Source: Candidatus Thorarchaeota archaeon (GTDB lineage Archaea; Asgardarchaeota; Thorarchaeia; Thorarchaeales; Thorarchaeaceae). From it: a stretch of DNA of 64,000 nt. Positions 6,228-52,583 of this stretch are shown here, piece by piece. Each line of letters opens with the position of its first letter. The first letter of the stretch is position 1. The notes under the pieces were generated by a model, which saw nothing but the letters and a program-made list of their open reading frames with translations, made no database searches and was not told where the DNA came from. Location of the stretch: positions 96,001-160,000 of the forward strand of contig CAVSBO010000003.1 in NCBI GenBank assembly GCA_963726195.1. Direction: 5' to 3'. The translations under genes were made by a program, and so were the position numbers.

Positions 6228-7105
6228 AGGAGTACATCCTGTATACGGGATGCACCACACCTGTCAGGCATCCAGGGTACGAAGCTGCCACGAGGGCCGT
6301 GCTTGAGAAGCTGGGTGTGCACCTTGTCACCGTGAAAGGGATGAACTGCTGCGGAGCGCAGTACATCGAGTCCCTAAACAGAATGGCCTTTGCCGCGATG
6401 GGCGGACGCATCCTCGCTCTCGCTGAACGCGAAGGCAAAGACATTCTGGCGATATGCGGTGCGTGTTCGGGTTCTTTGAAGCACAACAAGCACCTTCTTG
6501 ATACAGATAAGAAAGTCAGGGACGAAGTGAACTCGCTTCTGGCAAGTGAGGGGCTCAAGTACACGGGAAAGGTTGACGTCAAACATCTCTTGCAGGTCAT
6601 GAGAGACGATATTGGTTATGATAAAATCAAGGCCGCAACTGTGAGACCGTACACGGGCATTCGTCTTGCCGCTCACTATGGGTGTCACGTCACGAGACCC
6701 TACGACATAGTGAAGGTTGATGACCCCGAGAACCCGACCGTCATAGACAAAATCATCGAAGCGGTCGGCGCTACACCAGTTGACTACCCGGGCAAGACAA
6801 GATGCTGCGGCGGACCCTTGCTAGCAATGGACCAAGATCTGGCTGGCAAGATCGGTATGGAGAAGATAAGGAACGTTAGGTCCGTCGGAGCCCAAGGCAT
6901 CGTTACGGCATGTGTGTTCTGTGATATTCAGCTCACCCAAGTGCAATTCGGAGAAGACATTCAGCCTGAGGAACGCATTCCGGTTATCACACTTCCACAA
7001 TTCATGGGCCCGGCGCTTGGAATAGGTGACCAGGCACTAGGCCTCTACCTCACGAAGATAAGCCCTGATCATATTCTTGAAGCATTGCAGGAGGCAAAAA
7101 CGTGA
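6224..7105 (+). CDS. hdrB: Heterodisulfide reductase subunit B
   Basis: YTGC, CCG, HYGCH, CCGG and TACVFC CCG-domain motifs; GTG start overlaps the hdrC stop. Confidence 0.92.
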   Translation: MKEYILYTGCTTPVRHPGYEAATRAVLEKLGVHLVTVKGMNCCGAQYIESLNRMAFAAMGGRILALAEREGKDILAICGACSGSLKHNKHLLDTDKKVRDEVNSLLASEGLKYTGKVDVKHLLQVMRDDIGYDKIKAATVRPYTGIRLAAHYGCHVTRPYDIVKVDDPENPTVIDKIIEAVGATPVDYPGKTRCCGGPLLAMDQDLAGKIGMEKIRNVRSVGAQGIVTACVFCDIQLTQVQFGEDIQPEERIPVITLPQFMGPALGIGDQALGLYLTKISPDHILEALQEAKT

Positions 7106-8442
7106 GCAAGACCGCAGGAAAGAAATCATCTTCCTCAACGAAATCCAAGGGGTCTCAGAATGCTCTGGTAATAGGCGGCGGTGTCGCAGGAATGCAGGCA
7201 TCGCTAGACTTAGCAAATCAGGGATTCAAGGTCTACTTGGTAGAGAAGTCACCATCCATAGGCGGACGGATGGCAATGCTGGACAAGACATTTCCCACCT
7301 TGGATTGCTCGGCTTGCATTTTGACTCCCAGATTGAGCGAAGTCACTCATCATCCTAACATCAAGCTGCTGACCTATTCAGAAGTAGAGTCAATCAGCGG
7401 CACTGCTGGCAGTTTCAAGGTGAAAGTGCTAAGAAAGGCGCGGTTTGTTCGAGAGGACAAGTGTTCAGGTTGCGCTGCATGTTTTGCTGAGTGTCCAGTC
7501 GAAGCACCAAACGAATTCGATTGGGGAATAGGATTCAGGAAGGCGATTTACATTTCATTCCCACAGGCAACACCGAACATATCTACAGTGGACAAGGCAA
7601 CTTGTATCAAGTGCAACCGTTGTGTCAAGGTATGCGAACGAGAAGCAATAGACCTGAACATGACGGACGAATACGTTGATCTCGATGTCGGTGCGATTGT
7701 TGTTGCCACTGGCTATCGCCTATTTGATGTCGTTGCATACCCACGGCTGGGTTATGGCAAGTATGCCAATGTCATTCATGCAATGGAGTTCGAGCGACTA
7801 ATCAATGCTGCAGGCCCCACAGGCGGCCATCTGATTAGACTGAGTGACGGAAAGATACCCAAGAGCGTTGGATTTGTCCAGTGCGTCGGCGCCAGAGACG
7901 TGAACAAAGGTGTGCCGTTCTGTTCGAGGGTGTGCTGTATGTACGGCATCAAGAACGCAGTGATGACAAAGGAGCACTATCCTGATACTGATGTCACCGT
8001 ATACTATGCAGACATCAGAGCTTTCGGGAAGGGATTCGAAGAATTCTATGAGACTGCACAGAGTCGGTTTGGAGTCAAGTTCATGAAGGGAAGGGTCGGT
8101 GAGGTGGCCGAGAACCCAACGAGCGAGGATTTGGTAGTTCGGGTGGAGGATGTCTTACATCACAAAGTGATGCAGGTACAGCATGACCTTGTCGTTCTGT
8201 GTCCAGGGCTTCAGCCGCCGAAGGACTTGGAAAGTCTTGCCAACCAACTGGGAGTTGACCTCAGCGAGGAGGGTTACATTGAGGCTCAGAACGTATTTTC
8301 AGGCCCAGTGGATACGAAGATTCCAGGCGTCTACGTATGTGGTTGCGCTGACGGTCCTAAGGATATCCCCGATTCAGTAACAGCAGGAAGTGCTGCGGCC
8401 ATGAGAACTAGCATAGTACTCGCAAAAGGAGGCGCCGCGTAA
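7102..8442 (+). CDS. hdrA: Heterodisulfide reductase subunit A-like flavoprotein (FAD domain + inserted 2x[4Fe-4S] ferredoxin)
   Basis: GGGVAG, LDKTFPTLDCSACIL, two ferredoxin motifs, CSRVCCMY, GPKDIPDS; lacks the N-terminal HdrA domain. Confidence 0.9.
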   Translation: MSKTAGKKSSSSTKSKGSQNALVIGGGVAGMQASLDLANQGFKVYLVEKSPSIGGRMAMLDKTFPTLDCSACILTPRLSEVTHHPNIKLLTYSEVESISGTAGSFKVKVLRKARFVREDKCSGCAACFAECPVEAPNEFDWGIGFRKAIYISFPQATPNISTVDKATCIKCNRCVKVCEREAIDLNMTDEYVDLDVGAIVVATGYRLFDVVAYPRLGYGKYANVIHAMEFERLINAAGPTGGHLIRLSDGKIPKSVGFVQCVGARDVNKGVPFCSRVCCMYGIKNAVMTKEHYPDTDVTVYYADIRAFGKGFEEFYETAQSRFGVKFMKGRVGEVAENPTSEDLVVRVEDVLHHKVMQVQHDLVVLCPGLQPPKDLESLANQLGVDLSEEGYIEAQNVFSGPVDTKIPGVYVCGCADGPKDIPDSVTAGSAAAMRTSIVLAKGGAA

Positions 8443-10190
8443 TGGCTACCAAGCAAACTCCTAGGATTGGAGTCTTTGTGTGTCACTGCGGGCACAACAT
8501 CGCTGGAGTCGTGGACGTGGCACGAGTGGCCAAGTCGGCGGAGACCTTGCCAAACGTGGTATTCGCAACTCACGAGATGTTCATGTGCTCAGATTCAGGC
8601 CAGAAGCTCATTAAGGACAAGATTGCTGAGCTCAACTTGAACCGAGTCGTTGTGGCCAGCTGCTCGCCGAGAATGCACGAGCCTACGTTCAGACGAGCCG
8701 TTGAGGAAGGAGGTTTGAACCGATATCTCTTCGAGCAGGTCAATCTCAGAGAGCACGTTTCATGGTGTCACATGCGCGAGCCCGAGGCGGCCACGAAAAA
8801 GGCGATAGATCTTGTTCGCATGTCTGTAACTCGTGCTGCCAAACTCGAGAGCTTGCCTATCAAGAGTGTGAAAGTCACTCCCAGAACTCTCGTTGTCGGT
8901 GGCGGGATTGCGGGCCTAACCGCCTCTCTCGATATAGCGGACAGAGGATTTGATGTCGTTCTCGTAGAAAAGCAGAAGGATCTGGGTGGGCACACAATCA
9001 AGTGGGATAGCCTATTCCCTACAGGAGAGAGTGGCACAGAAGTCATGAAACCCTTGATTCAGAAAGCAAAGACTCACAAGAGGATACAGGTGCTCACTGA
9101 CAGTGAGGTCACTAGCTTTGATGGATACATCGGAAACTTCGAAGCAACAATAAAGAACAAGTCGAATGGAACTAGCAAGAAGTTCGATGTCGGTGCCGTT
9201 ATCGTTACCACAGGGTTTGAACCTTTCAAACCTTCGGGCTACTTCTCATATGGTGATAGCCCTGACATCATGACACTGGCGGAATTCGAGGAACGGCCAA
9301 GGGATTCTCAGCTCTTGAAGCCGAGTGATGGTAGAACCGCCAAGAGGGTTGCATTCATCGGCTGCGTGGGATCCCGCGAACCCGGAAAGATCGGACATGA
9401 GCATTGTTCACGCTACTGCTGCACTGCCGTGTCAAAGGTGGCGGGAGACATCAGGGATAGGCTAGATGAAGTGCTGATTCTATACAAGGACATCCGCACT
9501 TATGGAAAGGGTCACGAGGAATTCTACAGACTAGCCCACGCTAAGAGTGTCATCTACTCAAGATACCCCACAGATGAGGAACCTTCCGTTAGTGTGAGAG
9601 ACGGTAAGATCGAGATTGACTGGAGAGACATCTTTGCAGACGAGCAGCTTCACTTCGAACCCGATCTCCTGATACTTGCTTCTGCCATGATGCCGCCTGA
9701 GGACATGGCGAACACTGCCAAGATGTTCAGTCTGACCCGAAGCGGTGATGGCTTCTTCAATCCTGAACACATTAAGCTGGCTCCTGTCACAACTCACACT
9801 GCAGGTATAATGATAGCAGGTGCTTCTCAGGCTGCCAAGAACGCTTCCGAATCGGTAATCGATGCAAGCGGAGCTGCAGCGAAGGCTGTTGGTCTGATGG
9901 CGAGAGGGCAGGTGGAGATTGAATCTACTGTTTCTCATGTGATTTCGGAACTGTGCTCCAGTTGTCGCACATGTGTCACGGCCTGTCCTTACGGAGCCAT
10001 TGCTATGGATGAGACCGAGAAACCTCCGGTAGCACTTGTGACAGAAGCAAAATGCCACGGTTGTGGAACCTGCGCTGCTGCGTGTCCGAGCAGTGCCATT
10101 ATCATGTATCATTCAACAGATGACCAGATTCTCACGATGGTCGAGGCGTACCTGTGTCCGCCCGTACCCGCTGAAGGAGGTGCCGCATGA
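8442..10190 (+). CDS. hdrA: Heterodisulfide reductase subunit A-like flavoprotein (N-terminal domain + FAD + C-terminal ferredoxin)
   Basis: RIGVFVCHCGHNI, ASCSPRMHEPTF, REHVSWCH, GGGIAG, CSRYCC, C-terminal 2x CxxCxxCxxxCP. Confidence 0.9.
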   Translation: MATKQTPRIGVFVCHCGHNIAGVVDVARVAKSAETLPNVVFATHEMFMCSDSGQKLIKDKIAELNLNRVVVASCSPRMHEPTFRRAVEEGGLNRYLFEQVNLREHVSWCHMREPEAATKKAIDLVRMSVTRAAKLESLPIKSVKVTPRTLVVGGGIAGLTASLDIADRGFDVVLVEKQKDLGGHTIKWDSLFPTGESGTEVMKPLIQKAKTHKRIQVLTDSEVTSFDGYIGNFEATIKNKSNGTSKKFDVGAVIVTTGFEPFKPSGYFSYGDSPDIMTLAEFEERPRDSQLLKPSDGRTAKRVAFIGCVGSREPGKIGHEHCSRYCCTAVSKVAGDIRDRLDEVLILYKDIRTYGKGHEEFYRLAHAKSVIYSRYPTDEEPSVSVRDGKIEIDWRDIFADEQLHFEPDLLILASAMMPPEDMANTAKMFSLTRSGDGFFNPEHIKLAPVTTHTAGIMIAGASQAAKNASESVIDASGAAAKAVGLMARGQVEIESTVSHVISELCSSCRTCVTACPYGAIAMDETEKPPVALVTEAKCHGCGTCAAACPSSAIIMYHSTDDQILTMVEAYLCPPVPAEGGAA

Positions 10191-10663
10191 TGGCTTCTGC
10201 GTCGGTACAGACAACTGACCAGACGACAGAACCACTGTCTGCCACTGGAGAAAAGCAATGGGAACCCAGGATTCTCGCGTACTGCTGTAACTGGTGCTCA
10301 TACGCCGGCGCTGATCTTGCTGGCACAAGCAGGATACAGTATCCTCCGAATGCAAGGATCCTCCGGGTGAATTGTACCGGACGCATCAGCCCTGAGTTCA
10401 TACTTGCCGCACTGGAAATGGGCGCAGACGGTGTCCTTGTATCGGGGTGTCACCCAGGTGATTGCCACTATACGAGCGGAAACCTAAAGCTTAGGGCCCG
10501 CTGGGCATTGCTTGAGAAGACAATCGAACAAGCCGGAGTAGATCCTCGACGTGTAAGACTGCAATGGGCGAGTGCGTCGGAAGCGCAGATATTCGCTGAT
10601 GGAGTGAGGACTCTCACAGAGCAGGTTCGTAAGCTTGGACCGATAGGGAGGGAATGGAAGTGA
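10187..10663 (+). CDS. mvhD: F420-non-reducing hydrogenase delta subunit (Cys form)
   Basis: CCNWCSYAGADLAG, VNCTGRI, GCHPGDCHY, WASASE. Confidence 0.93.
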   Translation: MMASASVQTTDQTTEPLSATGEKQWEPRILAYCCNWCSYAGADLAGTSRIQYPPNARILRVNCTGRISPEFILAALEMGADGVLVSGCHPGDCHYTSGNLKLRARWALLEKTIEQAGVDPRRVRLQWASASEAQIFADGVRTLTEQVRKLGPIGREWK

Positions 10664-11826: not shown

Positions 11827-13144
11827 GTGCCAGAAGAAAAGACAATCCGGATCAATCCTGTTACTCGCCTCGAGGGTCATGGAGCTCTCACCATAAAGCT
11901 GGGTCCCGGCAACAAGGTGAAGGATGTTCAATTCAATATCGGGAGTACTCGCTTCTTTGAGCAGTTCATGGTTGGCAGGCCGATGGAGGAAGTACCAAGG
12001 ATTGCTCCAAGAATATGCGGCATCTGCCCCGAGCCACATCACCTAGCCTCAGTGAAGGCTGTCGAGGCCGCTTGGGATGTCAAGCCACCCCCTGCTGCAA
12101 CGAAACTGAGAACGGCTATTGCTCGAATCTAAGCAGCTATCTTCTCATGCGATTCATTTCTATGCGTTAGCAGCCCCTGACTTCGTCTTTGGCCCGTTCG
12201 CCAAGCCAGAAGTAAGAAACGTTGCTGCCGTTTTGAAGTACAAGCCGGATATCGCCGTGCAAGCTATCAAGATAATGGAGTTCGGTCAGGAACTCTGCAG
12301 GGACATAGGAGCAAAGGCCATCCATCCAGTGACTGCGATTCCTGGAGGAATGCTCAACACTCTGACAGAGGAAGAACGTGACAAGTGGCTTGCTGCCGTG
12401 CCCGCGATGCTGGACAATGTGCAGAAGACCGTTGCACTTGCAAAGACAGTCGTGAACGCTTACATCGACGTGATCAAGAAGGTAGCGGTAACTCCGACTT
12501 ACTACGTAGGGCTTTCGAACAGAGGAGTTCATGACATATACGACGGGACCGTTCATGTGATGGACCCCGCGGGAAAGATTGTTGCTGACTTTGAAGCAAA
12601 GGACTACACGAAGTACTTTGGTGAATATGTTCCTGAACACTCCTATGCGACCCACATCTACTACAAGCCCGCAGGCTATCCCCAAGGAATCTGGAGGGCG
12701 AACACACTCGCGAGATGCAACATCGCAGACAAGATGGCTACTCCACTTGCTGATGCAGCATTGAAGGAAATGCGAACCTTGCTTGGGAGACCTTCTCATC
12801 ACACTTTCGGCTATCACTATGCAAGGATAGTAGAGATGGTACAAGCCGCTGAATCAATCAAGAGGCTCCTAGAAGACCCAGACATCGTAAGTACAGACGT
12901 CAAGCTGTCAGATGTGCAGCCCAAGGCTGGTGATGGAGTAGGCGTTGTCGAAGCGCCTCGTGGTACCTGCTTGCATAACTACGAGTGCAACGATGAAGGC
13001 ATTGTTACCAAAGCAAACATTATAGTCGCGACGAACCACAACGTAGGCGGCATTGAGAAATCACTGATGGATGCTGCCAAGCTCATCTTTGAGCAGGACG
13101 GACTCAAGAAACTGAAACTCCCTGAACCACTTGTGAAAACCTAG
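11827..13144 (+). CDS. vhuA: Group 3c [NiFe(Se)] hydrogenase large subunit, VhuA type, lacking the C-terminal Ni motif (frameshift ~12115)
   Basis: PVTRLEGHG, PRICGIC, VEAPRG, IVATNHN; one extra base at ctgagaAcggcta; no DPCxxC at the C-terminus. Confidence 0.88.
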
Positions 13145-13157
13145 AGAGGAAATCAAG

Positions 13158-13310
13158 ATGACAGACGAAATACCCGAAGGCGTGCTCAATCTCCTTGAGA
13201 TGGTAGTACGCTGCTATGACTGCTGACTCTCGTGCGCCGCTCATATCGTCATCGTGGACGAAGAGGGGCGCGAGATAGCCAGGAAGGAGATAGTGACCTG
13301 CGAAGAATGA
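13158..13310 (+). CDS. vhuU: Selenocysteine-containing hydrogenase subunit VhuU (50 aa)
   Basis: MTDEIPEGVLNLLEMVVRCYDC-U(TGA 13224-13226)-LSCAAHIVIVDEEGREIARKEIVTCEE*; supplies the L2 Ni motif missing from VhuA; RBS gagagga upstream. Confidence 0.92.
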
Positions 13311-13368
13311 AGGTGCGGTCGCAAAGAACTATACCGCGCTCGACAACCCTGCAAGGGTCGCCGGTCAC
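13293..13368 (+). promoter_or_regulatory. Eukaryote-like SECIS element of vhuU
   Basis: AUGA 13307-13310; stem ggtgcggt/accgcgct; AAA 13323-13325; GA 13342-13343; basal helix gtgacc.gcga/tcgc.ggtcac. Confidence 0.75.
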
Positions 13369-13574
13369 TCTCCTTCGTTCTCTCTCATTTCTGTGTCATG
13401 ACGTGCCTTGACTTCAATGCTCTTGGTGGTATTTCCGGAGGATTTGAGCTATTGCCTCGATTAGATCACGCCCGGGTGCAATCAGCCAATCTGCATGCGG
13501 CACCCTTCTCTATTGGAGTGGATGCGAAAACGAGAAGGGGAGGATATATCTCGACCTACTCCAACCAAGAAAGC

Positions 13575-13757
13575 GTGACTAATCGCCAAGCCGAATCAAT
13601 ACCAAAGCAGGTGAGACGCCGACGCGACCGAGAGCAGATTGTGTCCGCTCTTCGTGCCAGACAGTTGTCCGGGGAGGAGACATTGTCCCTAGGACTCGAA
13701 CTATCCGACCTTGCGGTTCGAACGACCAGAAGGCAGCACGATGAACGAATTCGGTGA
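13575..13757 (+). CDS. Small putative antitoxin/partner of the nucleotidyltransferase
   Basis: Short basic ORF (RQLSGEETLSLGLELSD) overlapping the NTase start; typical two-gene arrangement. Confidence 0.5.
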   Translation: MTNRQAESIPKQVRRRRDREQIVSALRARQLSGEETLSLGLELSDLAVRTTRRQHDERIR

Positions 13758-14310
13758 GGTTCTTCGGGTCGTCTGCAATTTCCTCAACGAGAATGAAGTC
13801 GACTATGTTGTGGTGGGCGGTATTGCTGTAATGTACTATGGTGTTCCCCGCACTACAACCGATATCGACCTGATTATCAGGATGAAGACTGCTGAAATGA
13901 GTCCGTTTGTTGTCTTTCTGAGCTCCCATGGATTCCATGCGAGATTAGAGGACTTGACTGCAGCGTTGAAAGAGGGCTCGCATTGCACTTTCTTCTACGG
14001 AAGAAGCCTCCTCAGACTGGACATTCAAGGGGTCGTCTCTGAGTTCGATAGAATGACCCTTGAAAGGGCAGTCAAGGTGAATCATCTAGGGACCGCTGTC
14101 AGGCTGGCAACGGCCGAAGATACTCTTGTCAACAAGGTGTATTTCCAAGCGGAGCAGGACCTGCGCGATGCCCTAGGAATTTATGTCCGCAATGAGGACA
14201 AGCTGGATTTCAGTTATATCGAGTCTACGTGCAGACTCCTCGGAATCGAAAACAGGTGGAAATCCTTTGTAAGAAAAGCCACCAGGAATATGAAAGAACA
14301 CACCGAGTAG
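13741..14310 (+). CDS. Nucleotidyltransferase (AbiEii/DUF6036-like)
   Basis: YVVVGGIAV..G.PRTTTDIDL, TAEDTLVNK, QDLRDA. Confidence 0.8.
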   Translation: MNEFGEVLRVVCNFLNENEVDYVVVGGIAVMYYGVPRTTTDIDLIIRMKTAEMSPFVVFLSSHGFHARLEDLTAALKEGSHCTFFYGRSLLRLDIQGVVSEFDRMTLERAVKVNHLGTAVRLATAEDTLVNKVYFQAEQDLRDALGIYVRNEDKLDFSYIESTCRLLGIENRWKSFVRKATRNMKEHTE

Positions 14311-14347
14311 GACTGGCCGAACCATGCTCGTGCACCTGTGATGTAAC

Positions 14348-14470
14348 GATGAGAATGGGTGGCAGACGCCAAGAGCTAGCACGTGACGAGCGGCGAATGA
14401 ACGCGGAGTGGCAAAGAACTGTACCCCCTGGACAAACCCATCGAGGGTCACCGGTCATTTTCCTTCGGTT
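14348..14470 (+). pseudogene. Decayed duplicate of the vhuU 3' end and SECIS
   Basis: gaatgaa..gcaaagaactgtacc..gacaaaccc..gggtcaccggtca..tccttcg aligns with 13305-13378; upstream reads DENG..VTSGE* vs DEEG..VTCEE*. Confidence 0.7.
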
Positions 14471-14585
14471 CCTCACCTTCGGCATTGAGATGGATTAATC
14501 CGAAACGGAGGGCACAGGCACAAGCGTTCATAGGAAAGGTGATTCTTATTAGCCGTGGAGTCATTAATATGGACGACTGGCAGGA

Positions 14586-50056: not shown

Positions 50057-52583
50057 TTGACGAGCAACCCGGTAATTACCCCGAACATGCAAAACGTGCC
50101 TGCGTTCGCCCACGAGTTCGTTCACAGAATGAGACAGAGCCCAGAAGCGAAAGCCAAGCCGAGCGTTCGTCAGACACAGGCGATTCCTGGTTTGCTCTCC
50201 TCAAGATTCTTCAAGAATGGCCAGCTGACATTGGATGATTTCATCGAGGCTGCTGTGTTCACTACATTTCCTCCTGACCAAAAGCTGGCACGCTTAGTCG
50301 CCGAGGATATCGTCTTTGGAAAGTCGTCAGAGAAAAAGATGGAGGAAGCCGCCCCCAGCCCAGAACAACAAATCAGCTCGAATGCACTTCAGGCTGTAAT
50401 ACAGCAGATACGACACGAACAGGAACTTGCCAAGCTGATCAAGAAGGAACGTGTACAAGCAGGTTATGACTATCTTCAAAAGATTCGAAAAAGACAGGAT
50501 ACTTCACTGTACGATGCTGCCAGAGATTACCTCAGCGACGGGGACATTGTGCTCCAAGGGATTTCCAGCGACAAACAGCTGAAGAGAACCGCTTCGCAGA
50601 AGCTTCTCGACAAGGCTGGCGACATGACCAGCAAAGACATTCTGAACTCCAAGGTGCTCGATGCTCTTGACGAATTATCTGAAGTGGAGAATGCCGCCGA
50701 ACGGTTGGCAGCGAAGGCATTGCGACGAGACCGAGATGTCACAACACAATTCGAGCAGCTGGCCATCAAGGATCCAGCGACCGCTGCCAAGGCGTTGCAT
50801 TACATGGAGGACATCAAAGTCTCCAAGTAAGGCGCAACGTGAAGCGATGGACACGGCCTTGCAGCAAGCGCTTCAGAATCTCAGTGACGCAGGAAATTAC
50901 TCTGCCCAGTTTGGAAGGGCGCCTGATAACCTGGTCGACCTAGCTAGGTCTGCTCCTTCTAGCTTTTCGCTTGGCGACTCATTTGAGTTTGCAAGCCAGA
51001 TCCAAAGTGGAACGGGTCTAGATATCCGAGAAGACCTGTTGCGTGAGTATGACAACCAGTACGATTCCGGCGCGTCAAAGAACATAGATGCAAGACAGCT
51101 GGCAGAGAACGCAATGGATAGTCCAAGTTGGAAGAACCTGGTTGACAAGCTCACGAACGACCTCATCCAGAACGCCTACTCCCGATCAAACCCCGCTGAG
51201 TACTTGGTTCAGAAGGTGAGTGAACATGTCGGCCTTCGCCAGAAGCTCCCTGATGCAAACACGGGGAAGAAGTGGGAAGAGTCTGTGCAAAGGCTAGCAG
51301 ATGCGGCAGCGGCACGGGCGACCAGCAAAGCTCACCTGCGTCAAATCGTGAAGTCATCCTCGAACGCAGGCCAAGCGCCAAGTTCCGAGGCCATCAGGAG
51401 CGCAGGGGAAGCATTGGGGATGACTGAAGAGGAGATAGGCGAGCTACTCAATCCATCTTTCGAGGTCATAAAGAAGCTAATTCAGCAAGGTGTGTCTAAC
51501 TTTGACAGACTTCACGACCTGATGTCTGCGGCCGGACTGAGCCATGACCAGCTTGAGCAACTCGCAGACTTGGCTCTATCAAAAGACAACCAAGCGGCAC
51601 TAGGGGCCGTCGCGCACATTGACCTGCATGCTGCTCTTGGCACCAATTCTCCCAAGATGGGATATAGAGGCGGACTGCGAGGCCAAGGCGTACCGTCTGG
51701 AAATCAACCCGGTCAAGACCGCGTCAATAAGGTCATGGGTGGTCTTCTTGGAGGCCCTGCAACTAACATCGTCAGAATATGGTATGCATATCGTGATGAG
51801 GTGCCCGATGAAGTCAGAGACAGACTAAGGGAAATCGCCAAGAAACTTCTAATCGACGTGGGCGAGCGATTCGCTCGTCAAACCATGGGAACATCCATGC
51901 TGGGAGGCCTGCAGGAGAGTTCAATTATCAGACCGTTCAGGATAGGCGACGAGACTGACCTGATAGACCTCGAGGAAACCATCGATTCCCTGCTTTCTCA
52001 GGGTAGAACGAGTCTTCAGATTCTGAATCCAGAAGACTTCCTAATCAACGAAACCTATCAAGGCCACAGAGCCTTCTTCTGGGCGCTGGACAAGTCAGGC
52101 TCGATGGAGAGTGCAGAGAAGCTCGGGATGCTTGCCATTGCGGTGATGGCAGGCGTATTCGCAGTGCAAAGAGATGACTTTGGAGTAGTCCTGTTCGATA
52201 ATGAGACGCATATCGTGAAGCGACTGGAAGATAGGCTTGCCTCAATAGACAAGGTTGTAGCAGACCTTCTCGATGTGAGGGCTGGAGGTGGGACCGGCGC
52301 GCGCACAGCTCTTGCTCTTGCACTAGCAGGTTTCAAGGAGACAAGAGCCAAAGAAAGAATTCTGATCTTGAACACGGACATGTACCTGAGTGATCTTGAA
52401 ATATGCGAGGAGCTGGCAGGCGAGATCAAACACCAGGACATAAAGCTCATAATAGTCGTACCCAGAATATCGAACAATGCGCAGGGGGCTGACGCTCTCG
52501 CAAAAGCCGCACGTGGGGTAGTTCTGGAAATAGCCAGCATAGAAGAGCTGCCTGAGAGACTGCTCCGACTCACTAACTACTAG
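50057..52583 (+). CDS. Large vWA-domain protein (frameshift ~50820)
   Basis: IDLEETI, MIDAS DKSGSM, GGGT, NTD; ORFs 50057..50830 and 50661..52583 join. Confidence 0.8.

Follow-up and report, generated by a model that had tools for sequence, protein, structure and literature searches.

The vhuU gene and its two UGA codons

The vhuU gene at the end of a hydrogenase operon raises the question of how two UGA codons in one short reading frame can carry opposite meanings, and whether the RNA structure in which the second is embedded is the signal that would recode the first. In the window (the whole stretch of 64,000 nucleotides that was analysed), vhuU occupies positions 13158-13310 of the forward strand when TGA is translated as U, with the ATG start at 13158, 50 codons and a UGA stop as codon 51 at 13308-13310; the product is MTDEIPEGVLNLLEMVVRCYDCULSCAAHIVIVDEEGREIARKEIVTCEE. 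The in-frame UGA, codon 23 at 13224-13226 on the same strand and followed by C, takes the position of a Ni-ligand Cys. More than 70 vhuU orthologs were collected, and every Sec-type ortholog has UGA at the equivalent position, where both Cys-type copies have Cys (TGC/TGT). The gene has the features by which VhuU is recognized, namely a length of about 50 codons, a location directly after a large-subunit gene devoid of the C-terminal motif, and the pattern D-x-U-x-x-C-x-x-H; the C-terminal Ni-ligand motif RCYDCULSCAAH is absent from the truncated vhuA and is provided by vhuU instead. This large-subunit gene, vhuA, which matches the Pfam family NiFeSe_Hases, ends at 13144, 13 nt before vhuU, and vhuU is the last gene of the [NiFe] hydrogenase cluster hdrC-hdrB-hdrA-hdrA-mvhD-(small ORF)-vhuG-vhuA-vhuU. 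The hdrA genes and mvhD (10187-10663, Cys form) of this operon contain no in-frame UGA; vhuU is thus its sole selenoprotein gene, and no second SECIS follows mvhD. The two neighbouring HdrA-like genes, at 7102-10190, encode 446 and 582 aa with complementary sets of Pfam domains.

The Ni-ligand motif R-C-Y-D-C-U-L-S-C (13215-13244) has a Cys where other hydrogenases have a Pro, as do all Asgard VhuU examined (about 90 sequences from several lineages); by this comparison the substitution is a family trait, predicted to create a vicinal Cys-Sec pair, and not a sequencing miscall.

The host genome (2.9 Mb in 19 contigs, 88.9% complete) encodes the machinery for selenocysteine decoding: a tRNA-Sec at C13:134005-134095, SepSecS at C13:131935-133207 (split over two frames at about 132153), an EFSec/SelB-type (EFSec-like) gene at C13:130545, and, on contig C7 at 50061-51160 (L082 1489-2600), a selD with one in-frame UGA of its own. 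The EFSec-like gene, SepSecS and tRNA-Sec are clustered inside 3.6 kb, C13:130545-134095. All of the sequences most closely related to vhuA were deposited under the name Candidatus Thorarchaeota. The sequence-only reading had set the locus against the eukaryote-like SECIS elements of Lokiarchaeia; the Asgard eukaryote-like type fits, and, the organism belonging to Thorarchaeia, the Lokiarchaeia background holds only by extension.

Anatomy of the element

The element starts inside the coding sequence and ends in the 3' UTR, and all its parts lie on the forward strand. In the minimum free energy (MFE) fold, an outer helix joins AGGAGA at 13285-13290, within codons K43-E44-I45, to UCUCCU at 13369-13374, whose place is also supported by the alignment. 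Inside it, fold and alignment agree on a basal helix formed by the coding tail at 13293-13303 (codons V46-T47-C48-E49) and by 13358-13368, in which 10 of the 11 positions are paired and U13299/C13362 is the mismatch. The AUGA core follows at 13307-13310; its UGA (13308-13310) is the vhuU stop codon and A13307 is the third base of the last sense codon. Above the core stands an upper stem (helix II) of 8 bp, 13312-13319/13333-13340, including two G-U pairs and again found by both fold and alignment, which is closed in the fold by a 13-nt apical loop, CGCAAAGAACUAU, at 13320-13332; the AAA of this loop (13323-13325) is separated from AUGA by 12 nt. The GA at 13342-13343, followed by a conserved C13344, forms the 3' half of the sheared G.A/A.G core. 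Fold and alignment also place a side hairpin, ACCC-UGCAA-GGGU, at 13346-13358, on the GA (non-bulged) strand, where it makes a third junction arm, so that the whole element is a three-way junction.

RNAfold returns the same three-way junction together with the outer helix, with an energy of -36.9 kcal/mol and z = -2.97; two of 200 shuffled sequences folded equally well. The AUGA, the 12-nt spacing, the AAA, the GA, the helices and the side hairpin are thus found in sequence and fold where they had been described, and the selenocysteine UGA does lie 83 nt upstream of the A of AUGA. The side hairpin had been drawn with five pairs around a GCA triloop: the hairpin itself is present, and the family consensus is 4 bp with a 5-nt YGCAA loop, the fifth pair (U13350-A13354) that would give the triloop being an option specific to the window.

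Conservation and covariation in Thorarchaeia

Conservation of the element was assessed with 71 distinct Thorarchaeia vhuU 3' ends, 70 of which entered a MAFFT alignment. The stop is A-UGA in 71/71, the opposite of orthologs that end in UAA or UAG and lack a conserved core, and lies 84 nt from the selenocysteine UGA, or 96 nt where the gene has a four-codon insert. In the alignment AUGA is invariant (70/70), as are the AA of the apical loop and the A-C on the 3' side of the core, the whole GAC being invariant or nearly so.

RNAalifold, which the earlier reading had proposed as a check, independently predicts a three-way junction from this alignment. Under the four-helix model, 91.3% of the cells are in standard pairs, compared with 36-48% in controls in which the 3' partners were slid by 1-3 columns, and 154 cells show double changes, compared with 23-37 in the slid controls and with a value that none of 500 shuffles reached. 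Because it is conserved to this extent, the structure lies far beyond chance. The outer helix (columns 8-12/100-104) is 92.6% paired, with an AU/GC exchange at one pair; the basal helix (columns 16-25/88-97) shows double changes at 8 of 10 pairs, and the upper stem (columns 35-43/58-65; 93.9% paired) at 7 of 8. In a strain from a peat metagenome, U13319-A13333 is replaced by G-U and U13314.G13338 by C-G. The side hairpin (columns 72-75/82-85) is 96.4% paired, and its closing pair occurs as AU in 40, GC in 17 and CG in 3 sequences; the other three of the four pairs hardly vary, so that the support for this stem is in part sequence conservation.

RNAalifold also offered an alternative basal register, GGCG at columns 25-28 with CGCC at 88-91; the window has GAAG there, which cannot pair, and this register shows almost no double changes, in contrast to the covarying 10-bp register, and was rejected.

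Dual coding of the 3' end

The 5' arms of the element coincide with vhuU codons 43-50, and the choice of synonymous codons in this region is constrained accordingly. Fourfold sites within helices and core are frozen (GGA for Gly50 in 46/46, GGC for Gly48 in 40/40 and GTG for Val46 in 48/50), including those at codons 46 and 48 in the 5' arm of the basal helix; outside the helices there is free variation, with entropies of 1.4-1.9 bits, at Gly8, Gly37, Val16/17/33 and the unpaired Leu45. The last codon ends in A in all 54 full-length genes, since that A is the A of AUGA, and the third base of the Thr47 codon covaries with column 92 of the UTR. The check on synonymous sites that had been suggested for the last codons therefore agrees with the proposal, and its three structural parts, a stop within the core, a dual-coded 5' arm and a three-way junction, all stand.

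The two UGA codons also have consistently different 3' contexts, C after the first and A after the second. The codon after the selenocysteine UGA (13227-13229) is Leu CUA in 49 of 54 genes and CUC in the other 5, a strong synonymous bias; the stop UGA is followed by A (position 13311) in at least 90% of the sequences.

The same architecture in other genes and lineages

Every Asgard set examined contains the three-way junction: vhuU of Thorarchaeia and their selD, vhuU of the Loki-like group, and the Loki-like vhuD elements, where most of those examined have it. In Thorarchaeia selD (30/30) the plan is that of vhuU, with the stop UGA inside RUGA, and the order runs from a basal arm GAGACCG in the last codons through RUGA, an upper stem whose apical part is of type II, GA and a side hairpin of the form GCCGY-YGCRA-GCGGC to CGGUCUC; in the alignment of these genes 87.7% of the cells are paired, compared with 32-45% in slid controls, and 85 show double changes, compared with 14-44. 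The selD of the same genome has its stop in a GUGA core (L082 2521-2524), a type II apical part, the side hairpin and the basal arms GAGACCG/CGGUUUC. The AT-rich vhuU ends of Loki-like genomes (n=12) are 91.3% paired (25-50% in controls), with a UA/CG exchange in the basal helix.

A covariance model, R1, built from Thorarchaeia vhuU only, recovered all 20 vhuU elements from outside Thorarchaeia, among them one with a UAA stop and its entire SECIS 20 nt downstream. Of 12 Loki-like vhuD elements it matched 9 at E <= 0.015 and one more marginally (E 0.79); the vhuD matches agree with the model in AUGA, the stem, AAA, UGAC, the side hairpin CC..GCAA..GG and the basal arms. R1 does not match Thorarchaeia selD, where the type II apical part differs and the junction comes from the separate alignment. 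At the two Cys-type vhuU loci, which served as controls (n=2), R1 gave no match and the element is absent. Over the 2.9-Mb genome the model recognizes three sites only: the element described here, with a full match of 100.3 bits at 13278-13386 of the forward strand, a paralog at C5:11902-12011 (69 bits) and a decayed copy (33.7 bits). Two other approaches were given up. Strict regular-expression descriptors run over the whole genome were too rigid, one mismatch or a side loop of 4 nt or 7 nt being enough for the paralog and selD to be missed, and were excluded from counting; an ad hoc helix parser handled 66 of 69 Thorarchaeia vhuU and returned wrong sub-structures in the AT-rich Loki-like sequences, and R1 was used instead.

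The layout of AUGA, 8-bp stem, A-rich loop and GA, the presence of a gene with an in-frame Sec UGA and of the Sec machinery, the covariation, and the absence at the two Cys-type copies all support the eukaryote-type SECIS that the sequence-only reading had proposed; the stretch 13285-13374 most probably constitutes the vhuU selenocysteine insertion sequence of Thorarchaeia, an Asgard 'eukaryote-like' SECIS built on a three-way junction, with an estimated probability of about 0.88. A structure of another kind at the 3' end of the hydrogenase operon, for example one that serves termination, processing or stability, or a generic K-turn site for proteins of the L7Ae type, with UGA-23 recoded by other means, appears highly improbable. 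It would be in keeping with the pyrimidine-rich tract 3' of the element, with the comparative nature of the data from which SECIS function is predicted here, and with the Rfam searches, which gave no match to SECIS_1 at the gathering threshold in the 64-kb window and none to any SECIS model at E <= 10, or to any other family, in 13100-13600 (weak matches to Bp1_684 and mir-196 were set aside as chance). Against it, a terminator scan found no terminator-like site in 13100-13500; the structure goes with Sec-type genes whose functions differ, and neither of the two Cys-type vhuU copies has it; AUGA, the A-rich loop and GA are core features of SECIS elements; and nothing else downstream is conserved, the only other R1 match in the window being the decayed copy.

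The stems of the side hairpin differ by family (ACCC/GGGU in vhuU, GCCGY/GCGGC in selD, CCUAU/AUAGG in vhuD), and its position and a loop containing GCA are the same in all three. These data bear on whether a plain AUGA-stem-loop-GA hairpin could be the whole SECIS, the basal helix and side hairpin being gene-specific extras, for instance for mRNA 3'-end stability, that have no role in selenocysteine insertion. Eukaryotic SECIS elements are functional without such a side hairpin, and three of the four pairs of the hairpin hardly vary; in the published models, moreover, core, upper stem and apical loop suffice (PMC11227280 section 7; PMC4989117). This simpler account is nevertheless very unlikely, as the basal helix and the side hairpin are shared by three unrelated families of genes and by several Asgard lineages, with position and GCA loop kept and stems changed, and the basal-helix pairs covary across the boundary between coding sequence and UTR.

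Some lineages depart from the overlap of stop and core. In one Asgard vhuU (L112, G297:C215) the stop is UAA at 84 nt and a complete AUGA three-way-junction SECIS lies 20 nt downstream, entirely in the UTR, which makes this locus a natural 'uncoupled' control for the overlap. The constant spacing of 84 nt may reflect the length of the protein tail and not a distance rule of the SECIS, because the stop at this locus keeps the 84 nt even though its SECIS lies 20 nt further on. In four non-Thorarchaeia Asgard vhuU (L100, L108, L109 and L110) UUGA or CUGA is found at the core and stop with the remaining structure intact, whereas the published Asgard models allow only A or G at the first core position.

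Relation to known SECIS elements and to k-junctions

SECIS elements of Thorarchaeota were reportedly first described by Liu et al. in 2018. The overlap between stop codon and AUGA is not new in Asgard archaea and has been in print since 2016, so that the locus joins a class already described. According to Mariotti 2016 (PMC4989117), AUGA also serves Loki VhuU.1 as its stop codon, UGA terminates many Loki selenoprotein genes, and recoding there would be precluded by proximity to the lokiSECIS, which implies a minimal-distance rule; Huang 2024 (PMC11227280) likewise describes UGA stops as often overlapping AUGA in Asgard archaea. With the lokiSECIS and the Asgard type I elements (PMC4989117, PMC11227280) the element shares an AUGA directly 5' of the stem, a loop that opens with A-rich sequence, a GA on the 3' side of the stem and a location right where the selenoprotein gene ends; in VhuU the AUGA contains the UGA stop, as both papers state. 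It agrees with the type I description of Huang 2024 in the core, (AU)GA ... [G/A]A around the upper stem (AUGA 13307-13310, GA 13342-13343), in the upper stem (7-15 bp with at most 2 mismatches; 8 bp here), in the loop (8-20 nt with unpaired adenines near the 5' side; 13 nt with AAA here) and in location, at or just past the end of a gene whose frame contains a UGA at a Cys/Sec position (codon 23 of vhuU), in a genome with Sec machinery. For Thorarchaeia frhA/vhuU elements the same study reported G[U/G]AAA loops and a lower stem [U/C]GG_C[C/U][A/G]; the AAA loop of the window matches the loops of the frhA type, and the basal helix fits the lower-stem signature. In the Loki consensus the stem is 9 bp long, the loop of 11 nt closes with AG, and VhuU has AA in place of GA; in the Thorarchaeia element the stem consists of 8 bp and an A.C apposition, the loop (CGCAAAG...) is 13 nt long and lacks the terminal AG, and the 3' dinucleotide of the core is GA.

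The non-Watson-Crick quartet AUGA...GA is shared with eukaryotic type I/II SECIS elements, as are a helix II of about 9-10 bp when the quartet is counted, adenines left unpaired some 12 nt 3' of the core, and a helix I beneath the internal loop. Differences from the eukaryotic elements are that the Rfam SECIS_1 covariance model does not match, that the element overlaps coding sequence and stop and does not lie far out in the 3' UTR, and that the 3' strand of the internal loop, plain in eukaryotes, carries a conserved hairpin. With the SECIS elements of Methanococcales and Methanopyrus it has in common the vhuU family, the archaeal/eukaryotic Sec pathway and a site 3' near the gene end; unlike the GAA_A type of Methanococcales, it has neither the asymmetric GAA/A bulge, which there separates a long GC-rich lower stem from a GC upper stem of roughly 3 bp, nor such a short upper stem, and shows instead the AUGA/GA core and an uninterrupted 8-bp stem. 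Bacterial SECIS elements, SelB-binding hairpins within the ORF, resemble it in that RNA structure and protein share nucleotides, here in part of the element, and differ from it in that the bacterial hairpin begins about 11 nt after the Sec UGA, compared with 59 nt to the first helix here, where the core is K-turn-like.

Neither the side hairpin nor a junction is mentioned in the main texts of Mariotti 2016 (PMC4989117) and Huang 2024 (PMC11227280); the sections available of a 2026 review (PMC13188914) give only the type I/II model, and a literature search for SECIS elements with a three-way junction returned nothing relevant. The conserved side hairpin, or three-way junction, of Asgard SECIS elements may thus be new. 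The nearest structural parallel is the k-junction, in which a third helix is placed on the non-bulged strand opposite the G.A/A.G loop of a k-turn and which folds with metal ions and not by L7Ae (PMC10573300). The side hairpin, placed after GA-C-A on the GA strand, has the same topology as in the TPP riboswitch and DUF-3268 (PMC4005666, PMC10573300), a likeness at the level of secondary structure only; the k-junction bulge has 3 nt, compared with a 5' linker of 6 nt (AAGA+AU) between basal helix and GA here. A bulge of 3 nt, G-A-U, would result in most relatives from the alternative pairing GGCG/CGCC, which shows no covariation. We know of no k-junction in a SECIS element.

How the two UGA codons may be told apart

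The observed anatomy, conservation, covariation, synonymous constraint, tie to Sec-type genes and Sec machinery can be arranged in a scheme in which selenocysteine insertion by the element, its melting at termination and the removal of the protein tail are each inferred from comparative data. The 5' strand of the basal helix is supplied by the last eight or so codons of vhuU, with the sheared-pair AUGA/GA core below the 8-bp helix and the A-rich loop on top. When the Sec UGA (13224) occupies the A site, some 45 nt would still separate the leading edge of the ribosome from the outer helix; the distance of about 59 nt from this UGA to the first helix would leave the SECIS folded and able to deliver Sec-tRNA(Sec) through the EFSec-type factor. 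By the time UGA 13308 is in that site, both the outer and the basal helix would have been unwound, the AUGA strand held by the ribosome and the 5' arm of the upper stem drawn into the entry channel; as no SECIS would be left, the release factor would win and translation would terminate. The C after the Sec UGA and the A after the stop UGA are contexts that fit such a reading, folded at the first UGA and melted at the second. The 21-residue tail that contains the 5' arm would probably be removed after His29 during hydrogenase maturation, as suggested by the mature form of M. voltae VhuU, which has 26 aa (PMC9929600), and its codons would then be free to serve RNA pairing.

The junction is relevant to the proposed role of the Asgard SECIS as a link between archaeal and eukaryotic selenocysteine decoding, since no SBP2 is known in Asgard archaea (PMC4989117). 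That the side hairpin is an obligatory part, and the real Asgard SECIS a k-junction-like three-way junction, is a tentative idea that we hold to be possible and rather doubtful. The third helix might let the core fold without an L7Ae/SBP2-type protein and keep out the abundant L7Ae, as k-junctions are reported to do, or it might be where EFSec or a putative Asgard SECIS-binding factor docks. If true, it would help to explain the absence of SBP2 from Asgard archaea, and eukaryotic SECIS elements would have arisen by loss of the arm when SBP2 appeared. The published Asgard model ends at core, stem and loop; the element found here in vhuU, selD and vhuD of the sampled Asgard lineages is larger and strongly covarying, its basal helix extending into the tail of the coding sequence and a third helix being conserved on the GA strand. 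The conserved junction refines that model in a way that can be put to the test with regard to the missing SBP2: the analogy with k-junctions makes the question accessible in vitro, and the loop of the side hairpin is a concrete target for mutagenesis and pull-downs. Descriptors and covariance models of Asgard SECIS elements could also gain in specificity, as the three matches of R1 in 2.9 Mb indicate.

Paralogous locus, decayed copy and the state of the operon

The genome contains a second full vhuU+SECIS locus, on contig C5, with the architecture kept and the stems changed: the upper stem is AGACUAAGCC/GGCAUGGUCU, the side hairpin GCUCU/AGAGC, and one basal C-G pair has become A-U. In the window, vhuA (11827-13144) is spread over two frames, 11827-12132 and 12119-13144, by one extra base, at about 12105-12115, relative to four Thorarchaeota relatives; as the insertion is not conserved, it is not a programmed frameshift, and the split is either an assembly indel or the mark of a pseudogene, so that this copy of the operon may be broken. 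From the 1-nt insertion, the complete second locus and the decayed further copy 1 kb downstream, the locus might be taken for a decaying remnant, with its vhuU and SECIS unused and the paralogous operon on C5 doing the work. This is unlikely, though less so than the other alternatives considered above: vhuU and its SECIS are intact, R1 scoring 100.3 bits here against 69 at the paralog, and SepSecS on C13 is likewise split over two frames in the same assembly, which favours indel errors of the assembly as the cause of the split in vhuA.

An RNA-library contig, 93% alike over 12999-13243, bridges vhuA and vhuU of a relative and ends before the SECIS; it is not proof of transcription. Among the metagenome contigs aligned to the window, none spans the extra base in vhuA.

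The decayed copy, at about 14328-14480 of the forward strand, was recognized by alignment as the 3' half of vhuU plus SECIS (tail and SECIS at 14368-14476) and is not part of the working element. It keeps AUGA, AAA, GA and the side hairpin; its upper stem has 6 of 8 positions paired and its fold has z = +0.75. It follows a 1.1-kb insert with a 119-aa ORF (13398-13757) and a DUF6036/DUF2204 nucleotidyltransferase (13711-14310), an arrangement suggestive of a cassette whose insertion duplicated the end of the gene.
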